Notes: generated from the sequence alone by a model not told the origin. Shown: positions 8,201 through 28,700, counted from the first letter of the stretch. The stretch is 51,750 nt of DNA from Candidatus Omnitrophota bacterium (GCA_043718225.1 JAYSWD010000065.1:1-51750); one strand, 5' to 3'. A program made the numbers and translations.

Positions 8201-11200
8201 GGGAATTTCTTTCCCGTTTTCGTCAACCACAACCCAAATTTCCGGATTAGCCCCGCCAAAGACGCCTATCACTTCACCGCCGTTGGCTAAAACTTTCATC
8301 ATGCTGGTTGCCGACGCTTCTAAAAACTCATCAGAGAGCATGATGGCTCCCTGCGCACCTCGAAAAATGATAGGCGCTTCGTAGTAATTATAATTTTCGA
8401 TGGTTGCAACCCGGTCTTCAATCGACATCAATTCAACAAGAAATTTGATATATAAAAACCTACGATAGGCTTCTCGCTCGTCAAAAGTTCTGCCGCCGAT
8501 TAAAAGCCGCGCCCATGTTTCATGGATCTCATTTAAGTTTTTAGCATTCCGAATCGTTTGCTTGACCAGGGAAAAAGATTCTTTTTTGCCGGCAAGCCAT
8601 TCATTAAACAATTGTCCAAGATCAATATGGCTTAGACTTTTTTCATCTAGTGCTTGCCTGGCTTCGCGCGTGAATCCCTCGTCATATTTATCAGGCCCTT
8701 TATAAGCAACTTGCCGACGCAAATTGGTTAAAATCGGATCATTCAGCGCGGCCTGGATAAAGTCATTGAACGCCGGATGCACGGCCAAAAAAACACTCCA
8801 GGGCTCTGCTCTGTCTGCTTTCAAAAAAGTCGTAAGTTCGGAAGAAAATTGCTCAATTCGCGAAATCAGCGCGGCCTCACTAAGACCGTGAGCAGACATA
8901 TAATCTTTAAAGCTGTCAAACAACCATTTGATTTTATGTTTGCGATAGAGCCAAATCATCAGCTGGGCCGCGTCAATGGCACTGATAGCTTCATTTTTTT
9001 GCATGAAGTCCTTTTTCTGATCTGCATGATCGGGCAAATTCAACGCTTCAAAGAGCGCTGCGTCACTGACTTCCGGCACATCGCCATAAACAGGTATGCC
9101 GATTGCGCTTTTGGCCTTCTCTTTCAATTGCTGCCGGTCGGGCGAAACCCAGCGCTGAAAGAAAATGCCGTTTGTGCTTCGAGCTTTGCTATTAGGATCA
9201 TAAAATCCAAAAAGTTTATGCCAGTAAAATCGGAAGATATTGTCACGCAACGCTTGCATGTGTTCATTCAGACTTACTCCCGTGATAAGGTGGTAGCTAA
9301 GCAGAACAAAGTCTGTAATCCAAATCAAACCGTTCCCGGTAATAAAGCGCTTCATCCATCTTGGAAATTTGAGCTGTTTGAAAAAGGCCGCCGGCGGCTT
9401 AGGCACGCCCGGCATGAAAACGGTATGATTGAGCGTCACTTTTATTGCATCGGGGAAATGCCCGAGAGGAATGCTGGTAAAGGCCTCGTGATCCACCACC
9501 AATATTTTATTCTCATACGGTTTGCCGGCTACCAACTTCTTCATTAAAAGTTGTCCTGCTTCGCGGAAAACAATCATATCGGAATACCGGTCATAATTAT
9601 CTTCATAAGCCTCTTGAAAGACCGGCTCGCGCGTATCTGCATACCGTGCATCTAAATAATACTGTTTGGCTTCCTTGTGAAAGTCCATTTCTGTTTCATA
9701 AATTGCCACCTCGATTTCGCGCTCGCGGCCGTCAAGCTCAAGCGTCATTTGAATTTTCAAATCTCCACGCAACTTCATTTTAGATTTAATAACATCGCCC
9801 CACGGAACACCCGCGCCCTTTTCGGGTTTGTTTTTAATTCTGTTCCAAAGCGGATTTAATCCAACCCAACCTTTAGACGCGCCTGTTTCAATGGCGCCAT
9901 GGGCTTCATAAAGATCCGGCATCAATGCACCGAGACCTCCCGTTAAAGTCACCTGTGCGATAAGTGTCGCTGCTTGCGCGTTGGGAATTTTATATCTAGC
10001 TACAAGCTTTTTGGTCGCTTGCTCAAATGCGGCACGGATAGCCAGTTCGGCTCCGCCGGTCACCCCAAATTTTTTAAGCTCCTCATGATCATTTTCCTGA
10101 ATGGCCCGAAAAACTTCTCGCGCCGTGTTTTCAGGTAAAATTTTCTGAAGATCATAAAGATCATCATTAATATCTTTTTCAATTGCGTCTAAAATATGCC
10201 GCGGCAAGCCGGCCTCCATGGCAAAGCTTGCAATCCAATACTCTGGCAAATATTTAAATCCATTTTCGGGAGTTAACAATTTAGGGGCCTTGCGAAACTC
10301 GGAGCGTGCAAAGGCGGGTGCAATTGCTTTGGAAGATGATGATGTTGCTCGAAAGCGGCTTGTCGCCGGAGAGGCGGAAACCTGTGCTGTCTGCATCACC
10401 GGCCCTTTTAAAACAAAAGGGGTACTGATAAACTCTTTCATCGTCATTGCATTCAACGAAGACGCGAGCGTTGTTTGATTTAATTTCCCGGCTTTTTTGA
10501 GGCGCTGAAGCGCCGGCATTAATTTTGCGAATGTATTTTTCCAGCTTGCTTTCAACGAAGGATATTGCTCGGGATAAACCGCTTCTAAAACAATTTCGTC
10601 TAATAGCGAAAGCGCGCGCAGGTTTTTCTGCGCGGCAGCACCGTGAATTCCGCGAATTAAATTTTCGCGCCATGTTTTATAATTTGCCAAAGCACGCGAG
10701 GGATCTTTACGTTCGCCTTCTAAGTCCAAAAGCCGGTGTGTCATGGCACGCGCAAAAGATTCATACAATTTAATTTGGCCATTTTCAACACGCAGAAATT
10801 TTTTCCAGGAAACATCTCCGCTCATTAAGGCGTTGTAGCGGTTTTCGGCAGGCAGCTCCGAAATCGCCGGCGTCAAAACAGAATAAGAAATACCGCGTGC
10901 TTCGAGCTCGTTTGTGAGCCCCTCGGCGTGAAAGCCGCCTACAATCAAAACTGCGGTCGACTCGCCGGCGCGATGCATTTGCTTCAAGGTGTTTTCAAGC
11001 AATGCTTTTTCGCGCATTTCGGCATTCTTATAAAAAAGCGCAAAGTCCGAATTCACAAGTTCCGCGCGCAAAGTTTCTAAATTTTCGGAAAGAGCCCGAA
11101 AGCGCGCGTTCGAAACTACAGAGAAAGGCTTAACCGTCTGATTCCAAGTTTTGCGGGAAAGCTCGAGTTTAATCCAGTCGTTTAAAAACTCCGACTGATG

Positions 11201-12310
11201 AATTAAATTTAGAAGCGCGGTCTGGTCTGATTTGAAGGCGAGTTTTTTTTCAAGTTTCGCCAGCATGTTTTCCCATTCAGAAAGAAAGATATTCGACCGC
11301 ATGCGTGCCAACATTTCTCCGCGCTGCGCCAAAGCCCGCAATGCCTCCGGAATACGCGGCGTCCAGCCCTGCGCACGGCAGAAACGAATCGCATAAGCGG
11401 CAAATTGCGCATCGGATAAATTTCCCGTCGCCCAAGCCTGTTCATTCGAGGACCATTCTTTAAGCGTCTGTTTATTTTTTATTTTTCGGCGGACTTCCCG
11501 GCTCCATGCCGCGAGCGCTTCGCGCGAAAAAGATTGAGCGTCTTGAAGCTCCTGCGCCAGCACAGCAAGATGCGGAAAATCTTTTTTAAAGCCGGAGAGT
11601 TTCAGGTTTGCTTTTTCTAAAATTGACGCAAGAGCCTGCGGCTCGCCTTTTTTAAAACCAACGCGCTGGCTTTCAAACTCCATCAATTCTTTTGAAAAAA
11701 TTTCTTCCTTGAGGCTTTTGATTTTTTGATTCAGTTCATCCAATCGGCTTTGATAGGCGGGCAAAGCGGCGCGCGAAGAAAAATAAAATTGAAGGCCCTT
11801 TGCATACAAAGCAGAGTTTTCGGCTCCGAAATAATGTGTCTTTTCATTGCCTGAAAGCGCGGCCAAGGCTGCGCCTGAAATTTCACCTTGTGCCCCAAGC
11901 TGCCGCATGGCTTGGTTCAACTTCTCCGGATCAGGGAAAGCGCGGAGAAGCTCGGTTTTAAAATCGCCCGTGACACCTTCAACGCCCACAAAACGGAGGC
12001 GTGCTTCTTTTTGTAAAAATTGAATTGTTTGCGAAATGGACTCCTGAGCCGCGGGAACGGCATGCGCATCATTTAGAATCCAAATGGCTTCAGACTTTTT
12101 ACCTTGATATGTTTTTTCGGTAAAAGCGAGATTTTCGGGAAGCTTTAGGTGACGAAAAAGAAATGTGGAGAGTGCTCCCGACTCGACTTGGGCCTTACCG
12201 ATTGAAAACTGTGCTTGCGCGGGAGAAATGGAAGACCATGTAAATACCCCCGTAAAGAGAAGCACAAACAATCTAAAACGCAAGGAGCGACGGTTGGGCT
12301 GAAATCGCAT
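5276..12310 (-). CDS. Large secreted modular protein (2344 aa): shared N-terminal DAH/GGFH domain, RSExR-bounded divergent alpha-glucan phosphorylase, C-terminal region
   Basis: Signal peptide (RFRLFVLLFTGVFTWSSISPAQA); NDAH..VEG..MRE..VGGFH; RSEFR at aa 669; phosphorylase motifs SFAMEAGL, TGGLG, TNGI, RRQVAYK, EASATSMMKVLANG; RSETR/RSEAR at aa 2042/2051. Confidence 0.85.
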   Translation of the reverse strand: MRFQPNRRSLRFRLFVLLFTGVFTWSSISPAQAQFSIGKAQVESGALSTFLFRHLKLPENLAFTEKTYQGKKSEAIWILNDAHAVPAAQESISQTIQFLQKEARLRFVGVEGVTGDFKTELLRAFPDPEKLNQAMRQLGAQGEISGAALAALSGNEKTHYFGAENSALYAKGLQFYFSSRAALPAYQSRLDELNQKIKSLKEEIFSKELMEFESQRVGFKKGEPQALASILEKANLKLSGFKKDFPHLAVLAQELQDAQSFSREALAAWSREVRRKIKNKQTLKEWSSNEQAWATGNLSDAQFAAYAIRFCRAQGWTPRIPEALRALAQRGEMLARMRSNIFLSEWENMLAKLEKKLAFKSDQTALLNLIHQSEFLNDWIKLELSRKTWNQTVKPFSVVSNARFRALSENLETLRAELVNSDFALFYKNAEMREKALLENTLKQMHRAGESTAVLIVGGFHAEGLTNELEARGISYSVLTPAISELPAENRYNALMSGDVSWKKFLRVENGQIKLYESFARAMTHRLLDLEGERKDPSRALANYKTWRENLIRGIHGAAAQKNLRALSLLDEIVLEAVYPEQYPSLKASWKNTFAKLMPALQRLKKAGKLNQTTLASSLNAMTMKEFISTPFVLKGPVMQTAQVSASPATSRFRATSSSSKAIAPAFARSEFRKAPKLLTPENGFKYLPEYWIASFAMEAGLPRHILDAIEKDINDDLYDLQKILPENTAREVFRAIQENDHEELKKFGVTGGAELAIRAAFEQATKKLVARYKIPNAQAATLIAQVTLTGGLGALMPDLYEAHGAIETGASKGWVGLNPLWNRIKNKPEKGAGVPWGDVIKSKMKLRGDLKIQMTLELDGREREIEVAIYETEMDFHKEAKQYYLDARYADTREPVFQEAYEDNYDRYSDMIVFREAGQLLMKKLVAGKPYENKILVVDHEAFTSIPLGHFPDAIKVTLNHTVFMPGVPKPPAAFFKQLKFPRWMKRFITGNGLIWITDFVLLSYHLITGVSLNEHMQALRDNIFRFYWHKLFGFYDPNSKARSTNGIFFQRWVSPDRQQLKEKAKSAIGIPVYGDVPEVSDAALFEALNLPDHADQKKDFMQKNEAISAIDAAQLMIWLYRKHKIKWLFDSFKDYMSAHGLSEAALISRIEQFSSELTTFLKADRAEPWSVFLAVHPAFNDFIQAALNDPILTNLRRQVAYKGPDKYDEGFTREARQALDEKSLSHIDLGQLFNEWLAGKKESFSLVKQTIRNAKNLNEIHETWARLLIGGRTFDEREAYRRFLYIKFLVELMSIEDRVATIENYNYYEAPIIFRGAQGAIMLSDEFLEASATSMMKVLANGGEVIGVFGGANPEIWVVVDENGKEIPVLDKDGNPILKYEQLAEWLIEKKAHIRNGILVAYDKIISTQAGGGRRPSTESLIAAVKQAKENRKDAETRQKRMFDSVASSPRVDATTSQALAHAHLFEITISKEMERRALIERSPLDGKAIESIPRRKTFVWRLLREGKEVPLKAYPSDPALKGGLLRTMRSFRKIINYERLWGAEQTHGQDLLVSLAYSAGIRYRETVIESHDGDPKKRSMKIEFIGVLTPAEMEPGQNLFDYFIAELEALPENHSVLTQRVYELREKAMASTNPQVRLESLSEIVELIDQWLLASAGKFLEAYLNAMSPDEIAPLRKNLENASIDNTYQPWAEYLVRYLDTQSWAHVLDTSVDGLHSYVVQRPGKKPYLVNINVAHSVTDEIEGGQRVKKARATVFFDKYAAQLLGFSQSAFFLVKEVKRGLDFKLHPVGDGRLGVGILAPLNIEVLELEPKQNEAAFKMHIATKLANERNAEGSVGEIERQIQAMFELTQPEEREAAFSQYFEQLAEIDSRSAVFLFSKAGVRIIQLLAAALAPQELILFEDWDAAMYKNIQRLNQLVEGALFDESQVVERRVVTSSHIATIVIAVKLKSGATVFFNLKVAPGFDREFNQGSSETQKLNTVIMPNELKFLGFRDAAIRDGMVQRDGAPAQYDGRNFREAWQVRIPAEDAYQTLIVTQRSETRSAAVRSEARIQSGAKTPVASTNNLGIFAAFFLLVVTILGSQPAIAAEVAAPAYIAAHLGDGFVPKIILDSARGAAAESKARTELPLAQPAVLPADPLEIFVAAHFQANPKTKLHLGFAMAYSPTMEPDSLEAKSDFLIYAEKIEALKRQHPDGLIENHMALLLPKKPSKEASAFSKKVGKVARVQTVANSEAMESFLMRNQEIFTFNLEGLNMQPSDLKAFRHLAVKVGGLPSAQILNSAVFLNVSTAAQTDITVKDVQEIARRYPSLFGFNGSLSINSILDAALLAVEIRNYIASMA

Positions 12311-13593: not shown

Positions 13594-13720
13594 TGAAAGC
13601 GCGAAAGTGTATCAAAAACTCCGCTATGCTACAACCTTGCTAACCTCACGCCCGTCCGCCGTGGTGGAAAACCCGAATCACGCATTTATGCGGTTGAGCG
13701 AAGCTCAGAGCAAAAATATC

Positions 13721-16700
13721 TTACGCGGCTGAGGCGAAAACAAGCTGGGACAAAAAGGCTCGTGTCATTTCAATAAAACGGCCGGATGGATCGCTTAAAA
13801 ACTCATCTTTTTGAACCAATGGCGTATCGCTAACCGTCCATAATAGTCCTAAGGCCAACATCGCAGCTTGGCCTTGAGCAGCAACACGGGCGACTCCTTT
13901 GCGAAGGCTAGAAAATCGAACCTCACTTCTTCCGGTTATGATCACCGCTCGCTCAGAAACCTGAACTCGCATCAAAGCTTTCGACTCATCTCCGTTAATA
14001 AAATTAACACGTCCCCTGCCGTTTGGAATTGTGGTGAGCATCTGGGCTCGGTGGTCTTCAGAATCAGTTAATGAATCCTCACCATAAACTAAAAAGCGAA
14101 TCTCGGAACGTGTGTAGGCGGTTTTATAGAGCGCCAGAAAATTTTCTTCGGGAAGATTCCGCAATTCAACGCGCGAAATTAAAACTGTTCCGACTTTTTG
14201 AGCCGGTAACGTTTTCAAATTAAGCATGCGCTGCTCCGAACGCGCAAGAAAAAACGAATCGTGCTTACCGAAGAGTGGTTGCACAATTTCTTTGGGAAGA
14301 TCCAAAATATAAAATATATTTTCTTGCAAATCGATCTCGACATCTTTTAATTTGACCTTGTTCATACCCGAAATCATTGGGCGAACATTCTCATAAATCT
14401 GATAACGAGGATCGTTTATGAGCATTCGGGTCCAATCCCTGTATGTGCTTTTGTCATTTCCGAATGAACCTTCAAATGTTTCGACAGCCTGCTTAACCTT
14501 TGCATACGGGTCAATCGATGGCGTCACTATCGCATCAATGACATCAAGCCAGGCAAGATGCACCTCAGCCAAACTAATAATCCGAGTATTTGCAATGTAG
14601 GCATCTTTGGGTCCGGCCGCTACAATCGCTGCTTTCAATTTCGCTATATCCCCTGTAAGCGCCTCCCGAGTATTGCCTGTTGATAAAATAGTTTGTTTTA
14701 ATTCTGCCTGCCATGTTATTGATGCTTCGGTTTTTGCCTGTTGGCCGCCCCCCTTGCGACGCTGTCTTATATAGTCAGAATGTTTACGTTGCTTCTGCGG
14801 CGGAGGCTGAAAATGTGGCTTTGCAGGTGGAAAAAATCTCGGCACACTCGGCGCTGGTGCAGCGGGAGCCGGGGCCGCAGGAGCAGCAGGCAGCGGAATA
14901 CGAAACTGCCTTTCTGCATTTTCAAGTTTTGTTTTGAATCCACGCACCTCATTTGCAAGTATGCGCATTGGGCCGTCCACCAACGTGGTTTTTAAAGCCG
15001 CCTTTGCAACCAACAAAATATTAATGCCTTGAATTTCCCTTTCGATTTGAGCTAGTTCCTTTTTCCGCTTATGATAAAGTTCCGCACTGCCGATTTCCGC
15101 TTTCAAAGTTTCCAATATAGCCGGCAGGCGCTCATCTATAAATTTTTGTATCCTTGCTTTTGGTGAATTGTCCTCCGGCAAGGGGGCTGCCGCTACCGGC
15201 GCTTGCGGCGCGGGTTCTTTTTTAGTCTCGGCGCCCGTTGGGGCGACCGGAACACTTGCCGGTGCCTTCGCTGTTAATGCAGATTCCGTTTGCGGCGCAA
15301 CCGCAGCCTTGATGCTCACCGTTAGGGGTAAATCAAAAAATATTTGCGTATCTCGGATAGCACGCTCGAGCTTTTCAAATTGCGCGCGACCGGCTGCATC
15401 TAATTTTTTAAGATGGGGGCGCGTCTTTTCCAAAAGTTCGACGGCGCCGGACAAAGCCTTTTTCGCGGTTACGTTGTCACGCACGCTTGCACTCAAACTA
15501 GCCGTGTTCAAAATTCGTGACAAAGAAAGAACGCGTGAGTTGAAATCCTTTAAAACCACATCTGCATCTTGAGCGGGCAATACAGCGGACACTTGTGCCG
15601 CTGCCACAGCTACCACCGTTTTCCCTGCAACAATATTTTGTTTATAAACTTGCAAGGCCCGTGGCCAAGACCCATATTTAGTGACCATAACAGAATAAAA
15701 ACGCCGAACCTCTTCGTCTTGGTGAAAATGAATTTCTCCTGACCTGAGTTTTCCTTCGAGCACAAGCCGCGCGAAGAGAGCGTTTTCTTTTTCTTGAGTC
15801 CATTCCACCGGACGCGGACTATCTTTTTTAGGAATGTACAAAGCCCCCATTGGAATCCATTCGCGGTCCATGGCATAGCGGCGTATTTTTTTAATAATTT
15901 CACGGCGCCGCGCCCCAACGCTTGCCGGACTTATTTTAAGTGCTTCAGCTAGCGCAGTATCAGGCGCGGTTTTAGGTTCGGTAAAGCCTAAATCCTTATT
16001 TATCAATTCCCGGTGCTGGTCAGACCAGACAATATCTTTCACCGCGGTCTTGACTTCATTTACCTTCAAAACAGACCATTCAACAAGACGCGTCCAGCCC
16101 GTTCGCCGGTCTTTCAAAGCCAACAAGCCGGCGCGGCGCTGATTCTGAAAATTCGTGCTCGAAAGGCCCGTTTGTTCGAGTAACTTTCTAAAATCAGGCA
16201 AGAGCTCGTCCTCATCGGTGCTCAAGTAGCTTTTTACTAAAACATCTCTTTCTTTTGGCTCTAAAAAATTCCAGGCGTAACGCAATTCCATCATTTTTTC
16301 AGAATTGGTTCCGGCTAGCGGCGCACTCGTTCCATTGGCCCAGCGAAGATCCGCAATTGTAATTCCATAAACTTCAGGAATTCCGGTCGAGTAATCCAAT
16401 AAATCTTTTGGCTCTGTTTCGACGGGCAACAAAGGCTCAAAGCCATAATGCCGCAAGCCTTCGCGGATCGATCCAAACTCTGTTAAAATTTGGATCAAGG
16501 GCAGCAGTCCCGCTTCAAATAAAACAGTGTAAGTAATCGGGCCGCTCAACGCGAAGCCCGCGAGGGTTTGCCGAATATAATCATCCGTCCATTTATAGCG
16601 GATTACGGCTGTTGCGTTTTGAGTCCCCGCTTTTACAGCATGCGGCTTTCGCCATCTTACTTTTTTTATTTCCTCGTCAACCCACCCCTTTTGGATTGCA

Positions 16701-19700
16701 TGTTCTCGCAATACTTTTATAGTCATGCGTCGTAAATCCCGAATTTCCTGGCCATCGAAAGGCCCCTCGGCAACAAATAGTTTGTTAAATTCTGCTGCCG
16801 TTTCCTGGTCACTTTGGATGAATTCATTTTCAAAACCAAAATCGCGGCGCATCAGCTTGGCACCAGCCGGGCTTAAAATACTTCGCTCTGCCAAAACTGT
16901 TTCGACTTGTGCTGGCAAAATTCCGGTAATGGCGTGAAATTCATCTTCGGCTGTTTGAACATCGCGAAGTTCGCCGAGTGCCACTCTCCGCTCCTTGGAA
17001 ATATTTGTCCGGCCCAGTTGATATCCCTCTATCTTTAAAAGTTTGGCTATCGCGACAAGGGATGTCTGTGCGGTTTTCCCTTCCACTCCATATTGATAGG
17101 CCAAAACTAACCGTTGAATCGGCGTGAGGCGCAACCAGCCCTTCCGCAATCGCAAAATCTCTTTTTCTTTTGTTGTGTTCGTCAAATCTACCGCTTGTCG
17201 CAGCTTTTCAATGGAAACGCCGTATTCGGAAGGAATCCTCGCGTATTGACGCAACATGGGCTCACGATATTTATGGGCTGCTTTTTCAATTTCTAACAAT
17301 GTGGCGCGAATATGCCCGAGCCCGGTATAAATTCGTTTGCGCGTTGCCTTTCCTCCAAATTTTCTACTTACTTCCTTCGCTAAGGCTCGTTTATCATCCA
17401 AGCGGTTGCGGTTGATTCCAAAAAATCTTTCTAAAATATAAAATGTTTCCGGTTCTAATTTTAAAAAGTTTTCTTTTTTAATTTTTTCCTTGGAAATACC
17501 CAAAAACTCCGTCAAGTAATCCATGCCATCTTTGCCCGACAGAAGCAACGGTTTCATTTTAAAGTGATCGCTAGTGATATTCCGCGCGCTTTTATACCGC
17601 GCCTCCTCTGCTTCGGGATGCGCTGTTTTGTATCGATCAACCTCTTCGTTTACTTTGGCTAATACCGCGTCGTGGTCGAGCTGCTTTTCACGCCCAATTC
17701 CGTATTTGTAACGAATCAAAAGTTCACGCCTCAATGAAACCGACCTTAAAAAGTTATCGGTTATTTTTTCGACTGGGAGTCTTACTTCGTCCGCGAGAGA
17801 CTGCCGAGCGCCTTGGTCCGTCGGCTGAATTCTGCTAAAACCAGGCACATTCCCCGGGGGCGCCGCTGCGGGCGAACCTTTCTTTTTTTCCGTTATAGCA
17901 CTATACCCCGCCGCAATTGCTCTATTCTTTATATTCGACATAGTTGCTCCGACTGAAACTTCTGTGCTGTCGGCTGCGTCCGCAATTTGTCGATTTGAAT
18001 AATCAGAATGCTCACGCAATATTTGTATAATTTTCTTTTCTAAGTTTGAAAATGTCGCAACATAATCAGCCGGAAGTGTTGTTAAAAACAAAACATTTTC
18101 AGCGCGGGATGGTCTTTTGGTAATCCTTGTCGCATCAACAGACTCTATTTTCCTTTGGGCCGCAGTGCGCCCAGGCTCAGGCGGCCGATCTCTCCCTAAA
18201 GCTGAGTCTGCCAAATAAGAATGATAGGGATCTAATGCTCTCAACCTAAAAGCTGCGCTTTGGTGCGCTTTTCCGGGAGAAGCTCTTGTTGCGTCAAATT
18301 TACGAATTGCTTCATCACGCAGTCCTTTAATATATTCAGCGCGTTCTTTGGAGCGGCGAATAATTTGTGCCTGCCGCCAATTGAAAATAGCTAATTGCCA
18401 AATTTTTCTTCGAGAATTTTGTTCTTGATCAAGGCGAGCTCGCTCCCACAAAGCATAAGAGCCTTTTTCCACGGCTGCTAAAACTTCTTTTATTTCTGTT
18501 TCTGTCGGATTTTCAACGCCGGCCTGGGTCAGAAACAATCGCGCTTTCTCATAAAAACCAGACTGCTGGTCTTGAGAGTAAATTACGCCTAAATTTGAAA
18601 AGTTAACCTTGCCTTTTTTTTCGAGCTTTAGTAAATGATAAGGAGTTTGATAGTGCCGCATTTCTTCTAAAAGCTCCGCCATAGGAATCGGCAGCATATC
18701 AAATGGCATTTCTTGACTTCTCATCCGAGCAACGGCCTGATTGATTTCCTCAGGCGCCTGCTGCATGCCCCCGATCACTTGTGCGGCCCAAATACCTATT
18801 TTTCTATAATCTATTTCTTGAGCCCGTAAAAAATTATTTAAAATTTCTTTGCTGGAAAGGTCCAAAGCAGGAAAAAGCTGGGAAACAACCGGCCGCAAAC
18901 CCCGCTGTTCAGCATTAACTATCGCTTGGATTAAGTCATGCAGTGTAAGGACATTGCGCTTGGGAAAGCGCTGTTCTTGTGAAGAAAATAAGGCTCGCGG
19001 GTCTGATTCACCTTCTATGAAGGGCACCATTCTTTCTGACGGCAGGCCCGACTTAATACGCTGAATCCGCTTTAATCTTTCGGCGTCTGAAATGCGTGTG
19101 CCTAATTGCAAAACAGTTTTGATCTCGGATTGTTTTTCAATCACCCAAGGCTCAACGCGAAACCATGTCCATTCATTTGGATTAATTTGCTTTTGATCAG
19201 CCACGGTCAAAATACCCCATGCGGCTAAATTCTTAAATACTTCGCGCATCATGAGCGCATGATAATTTTCGGATGTTTCTATAATCATGGATGTTCTAAG
19301 CGCAAATCCTTCGCGAATCCAATCCAAAAAATTCGAAATTAATAATTCAAATGTATAAACATGCGCGCCATCTTCTTGAATTTCTGAATCAGCCGGTGTG
19401 TTTTTTCCAATACGCGTTTCGCTTCTAACAGACTTAGGAAATTTACGATGCGTTTCATCCACACGCTTCATCAGCGCTTCCGCAAAGGAAAAGTCTGTTT
19501 CTTCGATCACATGTCCTAGAATCCATCGATAGGAATCATAATCTGCCGGATCAAACGCTCTCAGCCGATAGCCTGGTACGGGCCGAAACCGTGCCCCATC
19601 AGGATGTTCAACTTTAATCTTGATAGGCTCTGCTTTTTGAATCCAGCCAAGGCTCAGAAATTTATCCAAAATTTTTCCGGCTGTGGTCGGTGATCGTCCT

Positions 19701-22700
19701 TCGAGAGTAAGCGAGGCTTGGGTCATTGAAAAAGAATTAAATCCAAATGTGCGGTACAAATTTTCAAAAATAACCAAATAAGCCCGAGCATAACGTTTGC
19801 GTTCAGGTTTTGAGTTGCCCTCAACCAGAGCTGTCACGGGTTTATCATCAGATACGGAAGGCAATGCGGCAAGCAAACCGGCCATTTTACCGAACAATTT
19901 TTTGGACCAAGCCGCATAGGGTGCATGCGGATATTTTTTATTCTCTTCGAAAATCCCTTTGCCTGTCATAGTTTTGCGTATAGCTGATATTTCCTCGCGT
20001 TGAACATGGATACCAAAACGCCTTTCCAGAAACCATTGCTCATTTGTATCCAGCAGCGCCCAAATTTGCTTGAGGTCTTCTTCGCGGCCTGGTGCTTCCA
20101 TTTTTTCTGCTAATAATGTCCAACCTGTCACGCGTTGCGCTAAACATCTTTTAATTTCAACAAAGCGAAAAGATAGCATTGCCCCCGTAACCTTGAATTT
20201 TCTCTGCGCTTCTTCGCCCGTGTATTTATGTCCTGTCTGCTGAACAAAGTCATACAACGCGCGATTTACTGGGGAAAGCGCAAACAGCACCTCTTCGTCA
20301 ATTGCATCTGCATTGCCTAGGGAAACATCCTTTTCTTGCGGAGCACCAGGTTGCAATGTTGGTAGTGGCGCTGACTGTGGAACCGGCATAACGGGCTTAG
20401 CTGGTTGCGCTGTTGCAAGCACCGCGGTTGTCATAGGGTCGATAACTCCAGAAGATGCCGCCAACAAAGCTTCTTTGATACGCCGCAGCATGGGGTAAAT
20501 TTTTCCAGCTGTTACAGAAACATTGAATTGTTTATTGAATAGCCGGACTATTTCAGAAATTTTGTTCACACGATTCATCCCGCGGCCAAAGTACCGGTCG
20601 AAAACAAAACGCTCTTCTTCATTAAGGCGATCAGCAAGGCTTTTGTCTATTTCCGCCTCAGGTTTTTCAAGCCATGCGGCGATGAAATGCCAGGCGGTTT
20701 CGCCTTTTGTGGCTTTGAGTTTCTCAAGTGCGCTATAAATAGTCCGATTTGTCTGAGCGCGGCTCACCTCAATGTCATATTTTGCTTTCATCCAACGCAC
20801 AAGCTCTTCCATGTCATTGGTATATTCGGCACCAACACCATACCAATGCCGCAAAAGTAATTCTTCCGTCCGTGATACTTGCCAAAAAAGATCTTGCGTG
20901 ATCTTTTCAACCGGAACATCAATACGCGTGCTTAATTTTTGAATATCTCGCGCCGGCCCCGAAGCAGTAAAGCGTTCGGGATAAGCCGCTTTTTCCACAT
21001 CCAGCGGGTCAATCCCATAATATCGCAACACAGCATCCCAATCTTTATGTTGCCTTAAAAAGGCACGATAAGCCCGCTCATTATCTTCGCGAACGCGGGT
21101 AGCGGTGAGCAAACTTAAATCGTTTCGCCTTTCATCGATAAACGCTAAAAGATCTTCGCCTTTCCATTTCCATGCGGGGTATTCGCGTTTATGATCACGA
21201 TTTTTAAGTCTATTGAGCGCTTGTGCTTTTGTATCGATAATATCTTGATTTGTCAGAGTAATGTTCCGCGCAGCAAGCTCGACTTGGTGTGTCTGCGCTA
21301 ACTCAGCGGCAATAACACGATGATCTTCTTCTAAAAAAACACCCAGCCCAAAAGCGCGCCTCAAAACAGCTTCGTATGGAATAACTCCCTGATTTTTAAG
21401 ATTCAACAAAACACGCGGAATAATTTCTTCCGCTTCTTTTGGGACAATCCCGGTTTCTTTTTCGAGGGCCTTGTAGCCGTTATCGCGCCCCTTTAGTTTT
21501 TTGAAAGCTTTCTTGCGCTTAACCCAAACCGTGTTTTCATCAATCCCCCCCATCGCCTTGGCCAGTGCGGAAAAAGATGTCAATCTGGTTTCACCCAAAC
21601 CAAACTGTAAAGTTAAAATTTTTCGCTCATCCGCGGTTAAATACAGCCACGTAAGCCGCAAGGCTTCAAGGCGCTTGCTTTTAAATTTTTGAAAGGGCCT
21701 TGCGCTAACCTGTATTAATTCTTCAATTGAAACATCAATCTCTGCGGGGAGTTCGGTTGGCAGCTTGCGTTTTCGCCCTGTTCCGCTGTCATCCTCATCG
21801 GAAGCAACCGGTTTCTTTTTGAAAGATTTCAAAATTGCTTCGACGGGCAAATTAACCATGCTGGTGTGGGTTTTAAAAAAATCAGCCAGCGCTAAAAAGC
21901 GCTCGCGGTTCTCTTTGTTTTCATCCTCTAAGTTCAGTAAATCCATTTGCGCGGCAAGTCCGAAAAAATTTACCGCGGCTTTTGCGGCAACATCCATCGG
22001 AACAATCTTATCTTCGATAAAGCCTCTTACTCCTTCGGCGGCATCTAAAAACCCTTCTTTAAATTTTTGTTTTTGATTAAAAAATTCCGGGTTTCGAGAA
22101 AACCTGTCCTTTTTTGTTCTTTTAACTGCTCCAAATGCTGCGTTATATGCATGCCCAATCATCGTGATTAACCAAATGTATGTTTCCCGAAGTTCACTCT
22201 GTTCGTTTGCCGCTCGGTTACGCAGGCGGTCTTTTGCAAGCACCGCTTCTTCCGGATGAGCTCCGCTTAAATCCTCGTCTTCCCCCCGGTCGTCCGCAGC
22301 AGCCGCATCTTCTGCCGTCTCAAATTCAAATTCATCGGTCATTCGAATAGTTTTGGGAGAAGACAGGGCAGCTCCGGACCAGGCAGGAAATTGTTCTGTA
22401 ACCCAATTTTTTATTTTCCGCCCCGCGGGCGAAAGATCTTCGTCACCTTTATTTTCGCGGTTAAGAAAAACTGCCTGAATTTTTGGATCAAACCACTTTG
22501 TTTCGGGAATGCTATTCAATAGCTCATAGGCTGTTTCTTGCCAGTGGCCGTCAAGAGCAGAATTTTTTGAAATGAGATACAAAATAAAATACGCAATCCG
22601 CAATCGCGCTTCCGGATCAACTGGCCAAGCCTTCGATAAATCCGTTATCGCGAAAGCACGGAGCAATTCAAAGTAAAACCCCACGATTTTTTTTCTTTCT

Positions 22701-25700
22701 ATGGCTTTTCCATCTTTATCCTGCCATTGCTTCCAGCCAAAGCGGTCTCTGCCGCCGCTTCCTAAAGTTAATCTCTCAGCCAGGCGTTCGAGCAAGTGAA
22801 TTAATCGTCCGTGATATTGCGCAGCATTGGCTGTTTCATCGTGTTTTAAATTTTTAAAAAAAAGCGGGTGAAGATCCAAGGCGCTTACAACCTGTTGTGT
22901 CGGGGGTTTGCGCGTTTGACCATCAACCAGCTTCATGTCATCCAATACCAGATTGATGCGCGCTTTGATTTTCAAAAGGCTCGCGGGAGCAAGCGGTTCC
23001 AGGTCCGGATACAAAATTTCGTGATTCGAAGAACGCGCACTGTCTTCATTATCATCTTCTATTGCCGTTTTCGCGGCAAACGGCGCATTGGAATTAAAAG
23101 TTTGCGCGCGGGCTAAAAGTTCAGCGCGTGCTTTTTCAAGCTGTTCAACCAACTGCAAATCCGGATCTGTAAAACGAGACCGTCCCAGCTGAACAACTTC
23201 CTCGATAAGCGCGTTCACCGCTACAATCCAATCATCTCCTTCATTGCCCGTGTTTAAAATAATTCTGCTTTTTTGATCCAGTAGTTTTGGAACCTCTGCT
23301 TTAAGCAGCGCCTGCAGCCGTATCAGTTTCGCACCGGGAAGAAGCCCTTGAAAATTTCCTGCCGCAGTGAGCGCTGCCCCGGCAGGAGCGGAGCTGAAAT
23401 TTTCAAAAGTCGCAACAGCTTGCTTGAGCTTTGAAAAAAGAGCATTAGACGCTTCATCATATTTGTCTATATACCCTTGCATTTTTTGAATAAAAGGCAC
23501 CGCTTGCTCATGCCCATATCTTCCTTTTGCTCCGCTTACGAATTTCTCCATCCATAGCATCCACTGTTCAATATTTGCGCGCACATCCTTGGGGAATGAA
23601 TTTTTTTCTGAAGCAGGTTTTTTTGTGTCCGCCTGTTTTATTGCCGGAGCCGGTGCTTCAGTTACATTTGTTTCTTTTGAAAGATCCCATAGCCCTTTTT
23701 TGATTAATGCGCCTCGAATTTTCAGCAATATTCCGCGCAAACGCTCAGCATCGGAAGAAGCATCATTCCTTAATTGTGGAACGAACTTTCCTAAATATTC
23801 CTGCAGGCGTGGATAAAAATCAGGGTCGGAAATCAATGCTTCGGCTTCAAGCTGCTTTAAAAAGGAAGTCAGGCTTAATTCTATGCCTGTATAAAAAAAC
23901 TTTGCTCTTGAAACAGAAGCTATTGCGTGGTCAGGTGCCAAATCAAAAAATATTTTTCCCGCAAAAAAACTTTCTTGCCCCTGAGCCGTGTTTAATTTTG
24001 CGTCGGGATCAGTAAGCCCTTGTCCCGTTCTTATTTTTTTCTTATCCTTGATCCACAGCTCACGCAGTAATTCCAAGGGCATTCGTCCTTTCAGGATAGG
24101 CGCCTCGGCAATTTGCCGCACTGTAAACTGTCCCCTGTTCGGTTCAAGGCCTTGTGCTTCCCGTAAACTTATTTTTACTAGATGAATCAGCATGCCAAGT
24201 TCATAAGAAGTCCACTCTTCCCCTTCGCGATGAGCATCCAGCAATTCAAGAATTTCTGCTTTTTCTTCTTCGCGCATTTCGGAGCGCGTTGGAATTAGAA
24301 CTGTCCAAACCGTACCGATTTTCACCGTTTCTTGATCGAGAAGTGCTTGGCTTTCAATTTTGGCATGAGGATCACGTCCTAAAAACCTGTTAATAAGTTT
24401 GTGTCCAGTGCCTTTTCCGTGAAGACGAAAAACTTTCTTCAATTCCCCTAGACGGGCCGGTGAAGCATTTTGCTGGGCTCCTCCGTCTCCGACATGAATA
24501 AAAATTCTACCGGCTTTTCTTTCCCACCAAATCTCAAAAGGCCTCGAAGTGTCCCCTGAATTGCCATGCACTACTGCATTTGTTAAAAGCTCAAGCAACA
24601 GATCGCGCAGTTTTACATTAAAATCGGTGCCCGCATAACTCAAGCTTGGACTTTGCAGTTCCGGCCGATACCCCACCCAGGCATCAGCCCAAGCCTCGGC
24701 TGTAATCGCAGCAATTTCTTTAAGCGCTAATCCTAGCGCTGCCGGCTTCTCTATTGTTTCAAACACTTCAAGACCAGAAAAGCGCATTATGCTTTTTTGT
24801 TCAGCAAACATGCTTTTTGCCACTCCGAGTTCGGCTGCGGACTTTGTCTTTGTGGTTCCAAAAGCTGCAATTGGATTATTTTTAATATTTTGGCGGCGAA
24901 CATGAAATTGCCGCATAAGCGCAGCATCTCGTATTTCCGAGCGCGCAGGCTCCAGCTCCTCTTCCGGAATAAGCTCATGATAAAAAATCTTGTCGCCGGC
25001 GCGATCTCCTTCTCCGCGCGCCTCATGCATCACGTTTGTAAGGTAGCGAATAATTGTTTCGGAAGTTTTTTTGTCCGGGCTTGTCAGTAGAAATTCTAGG
25101 CGTAGATTTTCTGCTTCGGGTTTAATAGATTTGAGCCGGGCTGAATATCCCGCATGCCGCCGAGAACCGACGCGCAACTCTGCCCACATATCTTTTTTAA
25201 GTTTTCTTTTTTGGTATCCGGTTTTATAAAGCGTGCCCATATCCCAGTCTTTAATTGTTCCGATGGCGTCCAAGACCTCTTGCCATGTTTGCTTTTTTGG
25301 TTTTGTTAACAGCTCCGCAAATGCCAAGCTATTCCACTCATCCGTATCCAAAATATCAAAAACTTCAGGGCCTGTTTTTTTACCCGTGTACCGATCCATC
25401 AACAAAGTGCGATAGCGCCCGATCCAAAATGTTTTGTCCGGGTTTTCATTTGAAAATGCGAAAACAAGTCTGTACCTTTTTCCCTCGGCACCGGCGCTTT
25501 TGATAAATATTTTTACGCGCTCTTCTCCGGGCTTAAGCGGTCGCAAACCCAAATTGGTCAATTTGTGAATGAAGTTTGGAGCAATAACCATTAAATCAAG
25601 GTGCCCGCGCGCAATGGCTTCTCCCAATTCTTCGTTCCCTACAAAATCAGGTAAAGATTTTTTCGATTTCTCCCAATCAATATCCGCGGGCTGCCGGAGA

Positions 25701-28700
25701 ACCATCCCGAGCTTGCTTTGCGCCTCTTTCATCGGATCCGGAATCACGTTTGTCGGAGCTGTTGTTAATTTTTCTAAAAGTTTTCTTCTCTGCCGCCCAA
25801 CACTGGTCGCCGCCATTTCCTTGCCTGTCCTGCGCGACCACTCGGCGGCAATGTTCAAATTTGTAAAAAAGCGCGGCTGATCAAGCCCCAAATCTATTTT
25901 CAAGAAAAGCTGCTCATCCTCGTCGAGATTCGCCTCAAAGGCCTTTTTGGTTTCTTCCACGGACAGCCCCGCTAAACTCGCTAAATGCTTCCAGCCTGAT
26001 TTCCATAATTGCAATGATTCTAATGCGCGATCTCGAAGCTCGCTCGCGCCGTTCTCGGACAAGCCTGAAAGTTTGATTGTGGTTTCAAGTGATTGATCGA
26101 AATCACCGTCCAACCCAAGAAATGCCGTTAAAACAGACTGCTCACGCGGCTCTAAAAAATTCCAGACCTGACGAATTTCTTCATGCCGCAATACGTTAAC
26201 TTTCTTGGGAGTGGGCAAGCCCAATCGCGCCCAAACCAGCTCTTCGCGCGTCATGCCCAGGGCTTTGGGCCACAAAATCTTTTTGCTTATTTGCGGAATT
26301 ATTTCCGGGGCTTGTTTCTTTGGCGTTGTCGGTTGTGCTTTGTGCGTTTTTTTAACCTCTTTCCCCGAATCTTTTGCTTTTGCCGGGCGTGCCGCCGCGG
26401 ATAATTTTTTTGAAACCGCTAGCTTTGGTTCATTTTTCTTAACTTGCAAATCTTTAGCAATCTGTTTCGTGTTCACCGGAACGCTTCTCTTTTCCGCCGG
26501 CTTTGTTTTTTTTATTTCTTTTTTATTGGTAGGAATGGTTTTCTTGATACGCTCAGACGGTTTCTTTTTACTTACGCCCATTTTAACGGTTGGTTGTTTT
26601 TTCTCTGCTCCCTTTGCAGCAGGTTTAGTTTCTTTGGCTGCCGAAACACTTCCTTTTTGAGGTAACGTTTTCGACGTTTTAGGGACGGCAATTTTCTTTG
26701 TGGTTTTTTTTGCCTCTTCTTCTGCTTTGGGCGTTTCCTCTGCGCCCTTCAAAGGCGCTCGGACCACAAACACGTTTCTGCGCGGAACATCCGGAGGCAT
26801 TTCGTCTTCCTCCAAAACTTCTTCTATTTCTGGCTCGATTTTTTTAACGGGCCCAGTGATTTTTTTGTGGTGCACAATAATCGTTTGTGTATTTTTTGAA
26901 ACTTCCGCCGTATCCCAAGATCTTCCCACGTTAACCCCACCCACCAAAACTTTGCCGATAGCCGTCATTCGTAAATCGGCCGTCTTCTCATTCGAAAAAC
27001 CCGCTCTTCTCAAAATGTCTGCGACATCACCCGAATCTTCCGACCGAAGGTTAACTTTAACTTCATTGATTTCGCCAAAACCTTGCAATTGCACTACAAT
27101 TTTCCGCATTTCGGAGCGAGCTCTAGCTGCCAATTCGTTCTTTGGCGGATCGGAACGCTTCGTTAGAACCGCAAAACGCGCAGGCATAATCGGTACGGGC
27201 GAAAAAATATGCGTATGTGGATAAACCGGGCTCCATTGAAGGGAATAATTCAAGTGATCGGTTTGAGTTTCTAACCACGCTCCAAACCCGTTTAAGTTTG
27301 AAAGTTCTTGGCGAAGCCTCTCGCCCCCGGGAACATCGATTGCCGGCAAATCTTCAACATTAAAACCAAGCCGCGCCGGAGTTACAATGATTTTCCCGCC
27401 GGGCTTTAAAATTCGCAGCATTTCTTGGATGGCTTTTCTCCAAACCGTTTCATTTTCAAGACCAAAATTCGTAGCAAAAACATACGGCATAATAATCAAA
27501 TCAAATTCTTTTTCCTCAAAAGGCGTCTGCAAAATATTCCCTTGCTGAAAATCAATATTCGGAATTGCACGGCCGGATTTAGTTGCAGCGTCAGAATAAA
27601 GTCTCTGTAATAACTCGTGTTGAACAATAGGCCGTGAATTTGTGTCGGCAGAAAAAATGAGGTCTGAGCTGCCTGCGTTTGAATGCAGCGACTTGGCGCG
27701 TTGAACAATGGTTGTCAAGCGATCGGAATCAAGTCCGGTAACTTTTTTCGCTCTGTGCTCAATAAGTTGAAAGGGTAAATTGCCGTAACCGGGCGCAACT
27801 AACACATTTTTGTCTTGCACCCACTCTTGAGGATCAAGCATGCCCGGTTGATTAAACCAATGCTGGCCAAAAATTCGCGCGGAATCAACTTCCGTTAAGA
27901 AATGAACATAAGTTCGTTTTCCCTTTGCATTTTCGCGCATGGGTAATTCTCCGCCATTAGCCAACGTCCGCAAAGTCTCTAATTCATCAGTCGAAAGCTC
28001 CCGCATTTCGGAACGGCGCATGAGCCGCGCCCAATGAAGGCCGGTTCCAATAAGCCCCGCGGCGGCAAACGCAAAAATCGCATCGGGAACAAGCGGATAA
28101 TCGATTGGCACCGGAGAAAGCTGTGTCGGCTGTGTTTTTAATTTCAAAAATATCAGCCCTGCCGGAACCGCGAAAAGCCAAAGATGAAGAAGCGCCTGGC
28201 TTATTACGGCCGGTACTTTTTTTAGACGGCTTTCTATCATTAAAATCCCAAGCATTGAAATCCATACGGGCGCAAAGAGATTTGACAGCCAACTGAGGAT
28301 TGAGAAATAAAGCCCTTCTTGGGTCAGCACAAGGGAAGCAATAACAACCAATCCGTTTGAAAGCAAAAAGAAATGGGCTATGCTTCGAGGATCCGTGAAC
28401 GACCGGGCGGGAGCCACAGTTGTCGCAGCCATGGATGAGACGCTCTCAGCAGGCTGGGCGGGCTCTTCTTGCCTTTGTTTTACCGGCGCAAATTCTTTTT
28501 CAACTGTCCATTGTTCGGCTTCAAATAATTTCCATTCTGTTGCGTCCTGCCTAAACATTCGAATGATTTCGTCCATACTTTGCGGCCGGGCCTCCGAGTT
28601 GCGCGGAAACATCCCCGAAAGGGGCGCCGTTCCCACTTTGATTTGTTTTTGGAGCTTCTCAATCCATTCGGTAATTTCCATATGCTCGGAAGGAAAGCGT

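Follow-up and report, generated by a model that had tools for sequence, protein, structure and literature searches.

What would an array of helix-turn-helix repeats resembling region 4 of sigma-70 factors do within a giant membrane protein? The question is raised by a locus of a Candidatus Omnitrophota bacterium, which was analysed as a stretch of 51,750 nucleotides, here called the window (GCA_043718225.1, JAYSWD010000065.1:1-51750). Giant multi-module proteins of the Omnitrophota have been described by West-Roberts et al. 2023 (bioRxiv 10.1101/2023.11.21.568195), Nielsen and Lui 2026 (bioRxiv 10.64898/2026.06.07.730766) and Seymour et al. 2023 (PMC10066038). Neither of the two bioRxiv papers uses the terms sigma, HTH or helix-turn-helix in its main text (0 occurrences), so a region-4 array is not described there as cargo, and in the available part of Seymour et al. 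(PMC10066038) 'Sigma' appears only as a supplier name. In the portions of these sources available to us, HATPase-type domains are common cargo of giants and 65% of giants carry a repeated Pfam domain (bioRxiv 10.64898/2026.06.07.730766), 94% of the catalogued giants have a signal peptide or transmembrane (TM) helices, and the view is taken that such giants reach the cell surface. The same partial texts discuss Omnitrophota giants as surface or predation proteins (PMC10066038, preprint) and describe one cultured relative as attacking an archaeon (PMC10066038).

Architecture of the giant protein

Positions 13721-41824 of the window (-) form one uninterrupted ORF of 9,367 aa with a GTG start, in a 2.3-Mb genome that carries many giant ORFs. 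In both of two DNA runs a single contig covers window 13700-27500 with 0 differences, although these runs may represent the source sample itself. The N-terminus of the encoded protein (aa 1-27, window 41744-41824) is hydrophobic and signal-peptide-like, clusters of TM helices are present as in the Omnitrophota giants, and the cargo domains found with Pfam are GNAT, alpha/beta-hydrolase, protein kinase, methyltransferase and HATPase_c_2. The 9,367-residue product is a membrane protein and belongs with the multi-module giants reported from Omnitrophota.

A junction motif, R-[S/A]-E-x-R, recurs at 19 sites in the giant ORF, and the modules between them measure 24-1,723 aa; across the genome, ORFs of at least 2,000 aa contain 111 of 133 sites. 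One junction, R-S-E-M-R, lies at aa 4903-4907 (27104..27118, -), and the array modules are bounded by further junctions at 24929-24943, 24272-24286, 19412-19426 and 14228-14242 (all -). Within a predicted cytoplasmic stretch of about 4,100 residues, R-S-E-x-R junctions divide off modules of 720, 214, 1,615 and 1,723 residues, with limits that include aa 4908-5627, 5852-7466 and 7472-9194. The 214-aa module (24287..24928, -), positioned between the repeat units U1 and U2 described below, contains HATPase_c_2, which scores 27.7 bits against a cut-off of 27.4, and 22 bits in the Pfam scan of large pieces. We take HATPase_c_2 to be the Pfam family in which RsbW/SpoIIAB-type anti-sigma Ser kinases are placed. 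The Pfam scan found neither a STAS domain nor a receiver domain (Response_reg) in the giant protein. Directly before U1 stands a Lys-rich low-complexity stretch (aa 4990-5184; 26273..26857, -) with 23% Lys and a net charge of +27, and weak HTH_24/AsnC-type Pfam matches occur near the array. No secretion or injection apparatus is encoded in the window.

Organisation of the repeat array

Fifteen repeats were delimited between aa 5219 and 8650, of which 14 form seven two-repeat units and one is single; the array as a whole comprises aa 5185-8650, window 15875-26272 (-). This agrees well with the original prediction, made from the sequence alone, of about 14 mostly paired region-4-like HTH repeats at 15880-26180. 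When each unit was left out in turn and searched for among the genome's 12,797 stop-to-stop ORFs, six of the seven were recovered at E 2e-7 to 2e-19. U1 (aa 5185-5356; 25757..26272, -), which consists of two sigma-region-4-like domains with a short helical linker between them, was recovered at E 2.3e-19, U2 (aa 6693-6877; 21194..21748, -) at 4.2e-16, U3 (aa 6963-7122; 20459..20938, -) at 5.4e-10, U7 (aa 8199-8376; 16697..17230, -) at 3.3e-19 and U8 (aa 8484-8650; 15875..16375, -) at 2e-11, while for U6 (aa 8009-8180; 17285..17800, -) the second half gave 2.1e-7 and the first half 1.3. The seventh, U4 (aa 7165-7320; 19865..20332, -), is a tentative unit: its match reaches only E 0.045 and runs over the linker into the beginning of the second half, its first half lacks the aromatic-Gly motif, and BLASTP between 100-aa fragments gave it no link to the other units. 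The same comparison connects U1 with U8 (E 4e-10), U3 with U6 (1e-10), U2 with U7 (4.5e-5) and U7 with U8 (4e-4). Leave-one-out searches with single repeats were much weaker, seven of 15 being reported, one at E 6.7e-6, three at 0.028-0.055 and three at 0.6-23. The single helix-turn-helix (aa 7919-7973; 17906..18070, -) was not recovered in them and matches Pfam HTH_24 below cut-off (E 0.007-0.01); it is taken as a generic HTH, and not as a proven region 4.

Spacer domains follow some of the pairs, namely U2 (aa 6878-6962; 20939..21193, -) and, in similar form, U7 (16376-16696, -) and U8 (15635-15874, -). They are all-helical with a G-S-W..A-L motif, are conserved with relatives, and are poorly modelled (pLDDT 56-76); by BLASTP, pair and spacer are colinear with those of the relatives. 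No tandem repeat was found in the DNA of the array, and identity between units is 10-32%, although core positions are still kept, as is an Arg/Lys in the last helix (10 of 12 repeats). An argument for the reading that we prefer below is that, judged from these sequences and from the recurrence of the pair unit in relatives, the array would have been kept by selection rather than produced by recent slippage. The repeats are mixed in charge, 8 of the 15 having a pI of at least 9 and the other seven being neutral or acidic, with a net charge of -5 for U1a.

Relationship to sigma-70 region 4

A profile of the 15 repeats searched against PDB sequences placed sigma factors (RpoD/SigA/RpoS) in all of the best 34 of 51 distinct sequences matched, with a best E of 2.1e-6 and 30 of these 34 at E <= 2.8e-4. 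Aligned with hhalign to the region 4 sequences of five genuine sigma ORFs from the clade, the repeats gave 96.3% probability and E 1.7e-9 over 59 columns, and in every run of the pair-level leave-one-out search the best matches outside the giant ORF were the two ORFs that encode sigma factors in this genome (E 6e-6 to 2.5e-4). At the profile level, homology of the repeats to sigma-70 region 4 is confirmed. Among LuxR-type chains, the profile search of the PDB up to E 10 returned only two response regulators (E 0.19-0.86). The HMM scan with Sigma70_r4 that had been proposed as a check fell short of the Pfam threshold: among 78 overlapping 110-aa segments covering aa 5150-8725 a single one, in U7, scored as high as 14.1 bits (E 0.033) against a cut-off of 24.1, and large pieces covering the giant protein had no match. 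In the giant ORFs of two relatives the family is narrowly under cut-off (21.8 and 23.3 bits).

The absence of a recognisable region 2, also noted in the original prediction, was borne out, as Sigma70_r2 has no match at E <= 0.1 in three pieces spanning the whole protein and none at E <= 1 in the 78 segments of aa 5150-8725; the giant ORF does not combine regions 2 and 4 in one protein as a complete sigma-70-family factor does. In the hhalign comparison, the recognition-helix columns in which the five genuine clade sigmas do not vary are not conserved among the repeats, which keep only the one Arg/Lys further along this helix. The -35-contacting residues are thus not conserved, which makes a simple copy of housekeeping promoter recognition unlikely.

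Structural modelling points the same way as the profiles, and the region-4 likeness first proposed from the sequence is now seen in PDB profile search, hhalign, AF2, VIA-align and Foldseek. Structure prediction of a repeat pair, another check proposed at the outset, yielded an AF2 model of U1 (pLDDT 88.2, pTM 0.81) with two sigma-domain-4-like bundles, and in another AF2 model the U7 pair reaches pLDDT 80-90. With VIA-align, 21 of the 22 top rows for the U1 model are sigma-factor chains (rmsd 1.6-3.9 Å over 57-71 residues) at Z 6.5-8.1, values which the program itself describes as common among small helical domains; LuxR-type structures lie below the sigma rows at Z 5-6.8. Foldseek gave no match at E <= 0.001, and its local matches to region 4 have TM 0.70-0.81 and rmsd 1.6-2.8 Å, among them 1ku3 (TM 0.81, rmsd 2.0 Å), 4g6d and 1rio. 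As modelled, each domain is a four-helix bundle ending in a helix-turn-helix that can be superposed on solved sigma domain 4 structures.

Membrane topology

The last membrane cluster before the array consists of four hydrophobic helices (aa 4482-4596; 28037..28381, -), and its loop charges put the following sequence inside the cell. The next hydrophobic segment (aa 8731-8749; 15578..15634, -), basic before and acidic after, is a possible membrane exit after the array. These assignments come from a Kyte-Doolittle scan, flank charges and the positive-inside rule, not from a trained predictor. The SAM-methyltransferase and ATP-binding HATPase_c_2 modules identified with Pfam on the same stretch need cytoplasmic cofactors, and from these modules and the loop charges the array is read as intracellular, probably cytoplasmic. 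The original description of the protein as exported can be retained for its signal-peptide-like N-terminus, but not for the repeats, which lie behind the four-helix cluster on the predicted cytoplasmic side. With the array on that side and beside SAM- and ATP-dependent modules, an exported effector is not supported, although the N-terminus and the surface location favoured in the available published accounts mean that the array may yet be exported.

Distribution in relatives

Giant ORFs with the pair unit were found in four of 40 close relatives and, at E <= 1e-7, in 14 of 301 genomes of the phylum when this one is counted (13 further among 300 searched), and the two-domain unit with its spacer is kept colinear across genera and families. 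The pair profile also matches 466 metagenomic cluster representatives, some of them complete sigma factors that carry additional copies of region 4. Many Sigma70_r4 copies are present in P0012, P0014, P0019 and P0032, and P0011, P0015, P0016, P0026 and P0033 have a full sigma factor ahead of repeated Sigma70_r4; a true Sigma70_r2 precedes the extra copies in six of 29 relatives scanned. Of the pair unit's 150 best relatives, seven have a hydrophobic N-terminus and 12 any TM-like segment, and P0011 joins a hydrophobic N-terminus, a full sigma factor and pair units in one protein. The scarcity of TM-like segments and the Sigma70_r2 domains ahead of extra copies both favour an intracellular location. 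HATPase_c_2 was not found beside pair units in seven stretches of four relatives scanned.

Possible functions of the array

The reading that we prefer, tentatively and at somewhat less than an even chance, is that the array represents putative intracellular nucleic-acid-binding cargo modules in a polyprotein-like giant membrane protein. Each unit would be made of two four-helix sigma-domain-4-type HTH domains held by a short linker helix, and would have descended from the region 4 of a sigma-70-family factor, first duplicated into a pair, with the pair then being multiplied to seven copies in this lineage. Together with the Lys-rich tail and further HTH-like stretches, the units would lie on the predicted cytoplasmic face over its roughly 4,100 residues, and would most probably contact the DNA of their own cell at numerous sites simultaneously, whether held at the membrane or, should the junctions be cleaved, released as free multi-HTH proteins. 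The repeats of high pI, the Lys-rich linker and the nearby weak HTH matches suggest such a DNA-binding setting.

Retention of the domain 4 fold and core without the DNA-contact columns would suit a decoy that mimics sigma domain 4 inside the producer and binds the beta-flap tip, anti-sigma factors or activators, sequestering these partners or recruiting them to the membrane-bound giant protein. This is rather unlikely in our estimation: sigma mimicry exists in nature, with PhyR and NepR among the structure matches, and a junction-bounded HATPase_c_2 module does sit between U1 and U2, but no HATPase_c_2 accompanies the pair units in the seven stretches scanned of four relatives, neither STAS nor a receiver domain was found in the protein, such giants commonly carry HATPase-type domains anyway (on the part of the literature available), and the partner-binding groove may serve the pair's own packing. 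That the bundles no longer bind a ligand and are only a helical spacer, a protein-protein scaffold or drifting duplicates, the enzymes being the active parts, is less probable again. The very low identity between copies, the mixed charges, the barely recognisable U4 and single HTH, and the frequency of repeated Pfam domains in giants (in the portion of that survey available) are all compatible with filler; colinearity of unit and spacer across genera and families, the kept core positions and basic residue of the last helix, the confident AF2 model of U1 and a wide family of array proteins with clean Sigma70_r4 copies in Pfam argue against it.

The proposal made at the outset was that an exported or injected array would bind promoter DNA or RNA polymerase in a host or prey cell and block or redirect its transcription. 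We now regard this as very improbable. The signal-peptide-like N-terminus, the make-up of P0011, the prevalence of signal peptides or TM helices among giants and their discussion as surface or predation proteins (the last two in partly available sources) speak for it, but the array is predicted on the inner side adjoining cofactor-dependent enzymes, the recognition-helix columns invariant in genuine sigmas are not conserved in it, hydrophobic N-termini are rare among the relatives and the window encodes no injection apparatus. Moreover, the cultured relative is described, in the available account, as attacking an archaeon, and to our knowledge archaea have neither sigma factors nor beta-flap docking of that kind.

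Comparison with known systems

With sigma-70 region 4 (PF04545) the repeats share profile homology and a four-helix fold with a C-terminal helix-turn-helix, as well as an L..E...L...[FY]G motif followed by spacer and HTH as in group 1-3 sigmas. They differ in that about 15 of them stand in one chain, paired and without region 2 or 3, in lying under the Pfam cut-off within a 9,367-aa membrane protein, and in not keeping the invariant recognition-helix columns of genuine sigmas. The very long ORF, signal peptide and TM helices are those of Omnitrophota giants, and the methyltransferase, HATPase, GNAT and hydrolase cargo resembles 'module 1' content as given in the available part of bioRxiv 10.64898/2026.06.07.730766.

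Zinc-finger arrays, TALE repeats and Myb repeats offer an analogy only: here too many small DNA-binding-type domains stand one after another, the scaffold being conserved and the contact positions variable, a pattern clearest in P0012. These arrays have no homology to the pair units, and nothing in the data points to in-register DNA reading by the units. PhyR-type sigma mimics, which are anti-anti-sigma factors, share with the giant protein a sigma-like domain outside a sigma factor. PhyR and NepR structures are among the matches of the U1 model (VIA-align rows 2 and 30, the latter one of the weaker), and 3n0r, presumably PhyR, was matched by the 15-repeat profile at E 0.19. PhyR differs in that it combines a receiver domain with a single ECF-like sigma-2/sigma-4 module, whereas Pfam finds neither a receiver nor region 2 in the giant protein. 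The multi-Sigma70_r4 metagenomic proteins are shorter (500-1,700 aa), mostly without TM segments and without the junction motif, and their copies are clear to Pfam, as in P0012 with nine stretches and 249 bits; like the giant protein, they carry repeated region-4 domains with a short helix before each, and they match the pair-unit profile at E 1e-20 to 1e-40.

Genomic setting and topology of the giant protein

The region that the original prediction assigned to an exported protein lies inside a single uninterrupted open reading frame (ORF) on the minus strand (13721-41824), encoding a protein of 9,367 aa to which all residue numbers here refer. The 51.7 kb contig is one of 186 in a 2.32-Mb genome bin with a completeness of 88.8%, and the giant ORF is flanked by ordinary housekeeping genes, namely those for YchF, RlmN, CorA, an ABC transporter, phosphoglucomutase and cytochrome c assembly. 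Just upstream, on the opposite strand, is a gene for a PF05635 '23S rRNA intervening sequence protein' (43704-44204), and a second large ORF of 2,344 aa (5276-12310, minus strand) sits directly downstream of YchF; the latter has only a weak carbohydrate-phosphorylase match (29.8 bits) and is without the junction motif discussed below. Tandem 7-base words are found at 40451-40496 and 41344-41374, within the opening 1.4 kb of the giant ORF. The genome contains 25 stop-to-stop ORFs of 2,271-9,372 aa, many of them cut by contig ends, and those of at least 2,000 aa total 109,804 aa, or around 14% of the 2.32 Mb. In one of these other giants (C186, 4,687 aa) there is one region-4-like match (E 1.4e-4). 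An assembly chimera was rejected because the region is spanned by a single contig in each of two runs, although these runs may themselves be the source sample and so do not constitute independent evidence. An expression look-up listed no RNA dataset for 16200-26180.

Pfam domains in the giant protein comprise two GNAT domains, an alpha/beta hydrolase, a protein kinase, a SAM methyltransferase and HATPase_c_2. A Kyte-Doolittle scan places the last membrane cluster before the repeat array at aa 4482-4596 and the next hydrophobic segment at aa 8731-8749, and between aa 4596 and 8731 lie the methyltransferase, the HATPase_c_2 module, a lysine-rich stretch (23% Lys, net charge +27) and all of the repeats. 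The loop charges of the cluster, together with four arginines that follow it, place the sequence behind it inside the cell.

Organisation of the repeat array

The array occupies 15875-26272 on the minus strand (aa 5185-8650), within which 15 repeats were delimited (aa 5219-8650; alignment A1). All but one of these combine into seven units of around 170 aa each (U1, U2, U3, U4, U6, U7 and U8; pair alignment A2), in which a short helix and a region-4-like domain are followed by a linker with a G-W..L motif and then by a further short helix and region-4-like domain. When each pair was left out in turn and searched for among all 12,797 stop-to-stop ORFs of the genome, six of the seven units were recovered at E values of 2e-7 to 2e-19, while U4 reached only 0.045. 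Single repeats are too diverged for this approach, with seven of 15 reported and one convincing, and of the 15 repeats twelve are therefore best counted as firm and the two of U4 as tentative, with the last a generic helix-turn-helix (HTH; aa 7919-7973).

Identity between copies is 10-32% and Tandem Repeats Finder detected no DNA tandem repeat within the array, from which it follows that the duplications are old; recent DNA slippage as the origin of the array was rejected on the latter ground. BLASTP comparison of the protein's own fragments links U1 with U8 (E 4e-10), U3 with U6 (1e-10), U2 with U7 (4.5e-5) and U7 with U8 (4e-4), so that related units stand in mirror order in the chain (U1~U8, U2~U7, U3~U6). 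As a simple block duplication would predict U2~U6 and U3~U7, this order suggests that the array may have grown from the middle or by repeated insertion.

A helical spacer of around 85-105 aa follows three of the pair units (20939-21193, 16376-16696 and 15635-15874) and is also present in relatives from other genomes. It carries the motif K-W-T...G-S-W..A-L..Y-G and has no Pfam match, and in a second AlphaFold2 model (U7 plus spacer) its pLDDT of 56-76 was too poor for a structure search. It may resemble the repeats associated with homing endonucleases.

The repeats as sigma region 4 domains

In sigma factors, region 4 is known to be present in a single copy. The original prediction that the repeats, mostly in pairs, are versions of this domain is borne out, as to domain identity, by profile matches to PDB sequences, profile-profile alignment and predicted fold. 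Searched against PDB sequences, the 15-repeat profile has as its best 34 of 51 matches RpoD, SigA or RpoS, with 30 at E <= 2.8e-4 and the best (E 2.1e-6) covering positions 2-59 of 63. Sigma factors alone reach significance in this search, and a transposase-type HTH identity was rejected for this reason. Aligned with hhalign to the region 4 sequences of five genuine sigma ORFs, drawn from this genome and its relatives (A6), the repeats gave 96.3% and E 1.7e-9, and the best non-giant matches in every pair-level leave-one-out search were the genome's two sigma ORFs (570 and 387 aa). A scan with the Pfam Sigma70_r4 model leaves a trace in one of 78 windows of the array, but at 14.1 bits this falls short of the cut-off of 24.1. 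No sigma region 2 was found by Pfam in the giant protein or in the array windows, as had been anticipated.

Structure prediction of a repeat pair likewise favours the assignment. The AlphaFold2 model of U1, made with a seven-row alignment, has ten helices (pLDDT 88.2, pTM 0.81) and superposes locally in Foldseek on region 4 of 1ku3 (TM 0.81, rmsd 2.0 A over 58 columns) and also on 4g6d, 6onu and 1rio; as a Foldseek query, it returned no match at E <= 0.001. With VIA-align against 48,161 chains, sigma-factor chains account for 21 of the 22 highest rows (Z 6.5-8.1), with LuxR-type domains ranked under them, and the second half of U1 matches other sigma-4-like HTH domains at Z 5-5.8. By the program's own caveat Z scores of this size are common for small helical domains, and the fold evidence thus counts only jointly with that from sequence. 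For aa 6693-7122 the leads from the Protein Atlas are only weak (0.87) and point to small Sigma70_r4 proteins, some of them from phages, and phmmer searches of flanking parts (aa 5852-6692, 5357-5632 and 7321-8008) against PDB sequences gave nothing below E 0.6.

Distribution within the phylum

Of 40 close relatives, four have giant ORFs (2,697 to 10,541 aa) in which the pair profile detects units. The other four matching genomes have half-unit matches in ORFs of 368-411 aa, three of which, on inspection, end in sigma region 4. At E <= 1e-7 the profile matches 14 of 301 genomes of the phylum, the present one being counted in both figures; almost all of these matches fall in ORFs of 1,173-13,732 aa with one to four units each, and the units of two relatives score 21.8 and 23.3 bits with Sigma70_r4. 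A giant ORF from the same genus is colinear with the protein described here on both sides of the array and yet has one unit only, indicating that the array has expanded by around 3,500 residues in the present lineage. A word-index search with aa 6690-7330 returned nothing among proteins of 5,151-16,393 aa and, among shorter proteins, one 89-aa fragment at 90% identity.

A junction motif fixed at the DNA level

The motif R-[S/A]-E-x-R occurs at 19 sites on the minus strand within the giant ORF (27104-27118, 32753-32767, 33233-33247 and 16 more), dividing it into modules of 24-1,723 aa. The array is spread over three of these (aa 4908-5627, 5852-7466 and 7472-9194), of which the first two are separated by a 214-aa HATPase_c_2 module. 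West-Roberts et al. (2023, bioRxiv 10.1101/2023.11.21.568195) state that the cleavage points of such giants are unknown.

In this genus the R-S-E-M-R form is fixed at the DNA level. Across 89 RSEMR sites in ORFs of at least 1,000 aa, Ser is encoded by TCC in 77 (background 16.5%), the first Arg by CGC in 68 (32%) and the last Arg by CGG in 55 (16.5%), and the flanks are not conserved. A degenerate 15-mer is in frame as RSEMR at all 80 of its sites, 74 of them in ORFs of at least 2,000 aa; the exact 15-mer has 40 copies in this genome and 4-23 in genus mates, and among 61 genomes of the order 18 contain it (reversed control, 0). Selection on DNA or RNA, as for a recombination or processing site, may stand on an equal footing with a protease site.

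A signal-peptide-like segment (36425-36502, aa 1775-1800) comes right after the junction at aa 1770-1774, and a twin-arginine-like signal with an A-x-A end (around 32375-32476, aa ~3117-3150; Pfam TAT_signal 14.3 bits, under the cut-off) lies inside the module starting at aa 3025. Internal segments of this kind would be expected had the modules originated as free-standing exported proteins.

A wider family of poly-region-4 proteins

When 1.84 billion cluster representatives were searched exhaustively by HMMER with the 11-row pair profile A3, 466 metagenomic proteins matched at E <= 1e-3, of which 59 had E <= 1e-10 and 14 had E <= 1e-30. They include arrays in which region 4 recurs as 9-11 clean copies, and sigma factors whose tails carry additional copies of it. 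Among 29 mid-sized proteins picked from the best 47, 26 pass the Sigma70_r4 cut-off, several with many copies, and six have a true Sigma70_r2 in front of the region-4 copies; in P0011, P0015, P0016, P0026 and P0033 a complete sigma factor precedes additional region-4 units. P0012, in which Pfam sees nine Sigma70_r4 stretches (249 bits), consists of eleven region-4 repeats at a spacing of 84-85 aa after a first interval of 91 aa, and its most variable columns fall in the linker and where the last (recognition) helix begins. Many clean Sigma70_r4 copies also build P0032, P0011, P0014 and P0019; the locus L013:4001-6814 belongs to this set. By a crude hydropathy measure transmembrane-like segments are rare, with 12 of the 150 best relatives carrying any.

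In the literature we found no description of proteins with tandem or multiple region-4 copies. In the array the domain serves as a repeated module, with as many as around 15 copies in one chain. The functions of Omnitrophota giant proteins have been called obscure in print, and the array would add a regulatory or DNA-binding type to their known enzyme and adhesin cargo. It also supplies small units, of around 170 aa, that fold well and lend themselves to direct expression and testing. The terms 'sigma', 'HTH' and 'helix-turn-helix' have no occurrences in the main texts of West-Roberts et al. (2023) or Nielsen and Lui (2026, bioRxiv 10.64898/2026.06.07.730766), though the supplements of both, and the Zenodo domain catalogue of the latter, could list weak PF04545 matches.

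Possible roles of the array

On the simplest reading, to which we give slightly less than an even chance, the array is DNA-binding cargo that a polyprotein-like giant carries inside the cell. The exported effector of the original prediction, directed at prey, is not supported, since the loop charges would put the array inside the cell and the methyltransferase and HATPase_c_2 share its stretch; of the explanations considered here it is the least probable. The repeats could instead be sigma-4 decoys acting on RNA polymerase or its regulators, which is unlikely, although more credible than the other alternatives. In the hhalign alignment the repeats do not keep the columns that never vary in the recognition helices of genuine sigmas, which argues against plain mimicry of promoter -35 recognition and not against DNA binding. 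A purely structural role, with the repeats serving as a scaffold, is somewhat less likely than a decoy.

Beyond the intracellular-cargo reading, we consider it improbable, more so than a scaffold, that the sigma-4 pairs are a modular multi-site DNA reader tethering the chromosome or RNA polymerase, and that the wider family is a new class. The scaffold of each pair would stay constant while its recognition helices vary and make contact with a short stretch of DNA, and the seven pairs, carried on a cytoplasmic loop of a membrane-anchored giant, would pin defined chromosome regions or RNA polymerase where its enzyme modules work. If this proposal were true, poly-region-4 proteins, some of them placed behind complete sigma factors, would be a new bacterial class for transcription or chromosome organisation, and the sigma-4-pair reader could be likened to a zinc-finger or TALE array, in which variable recognition parts are likewise held on a fixed scaffold.
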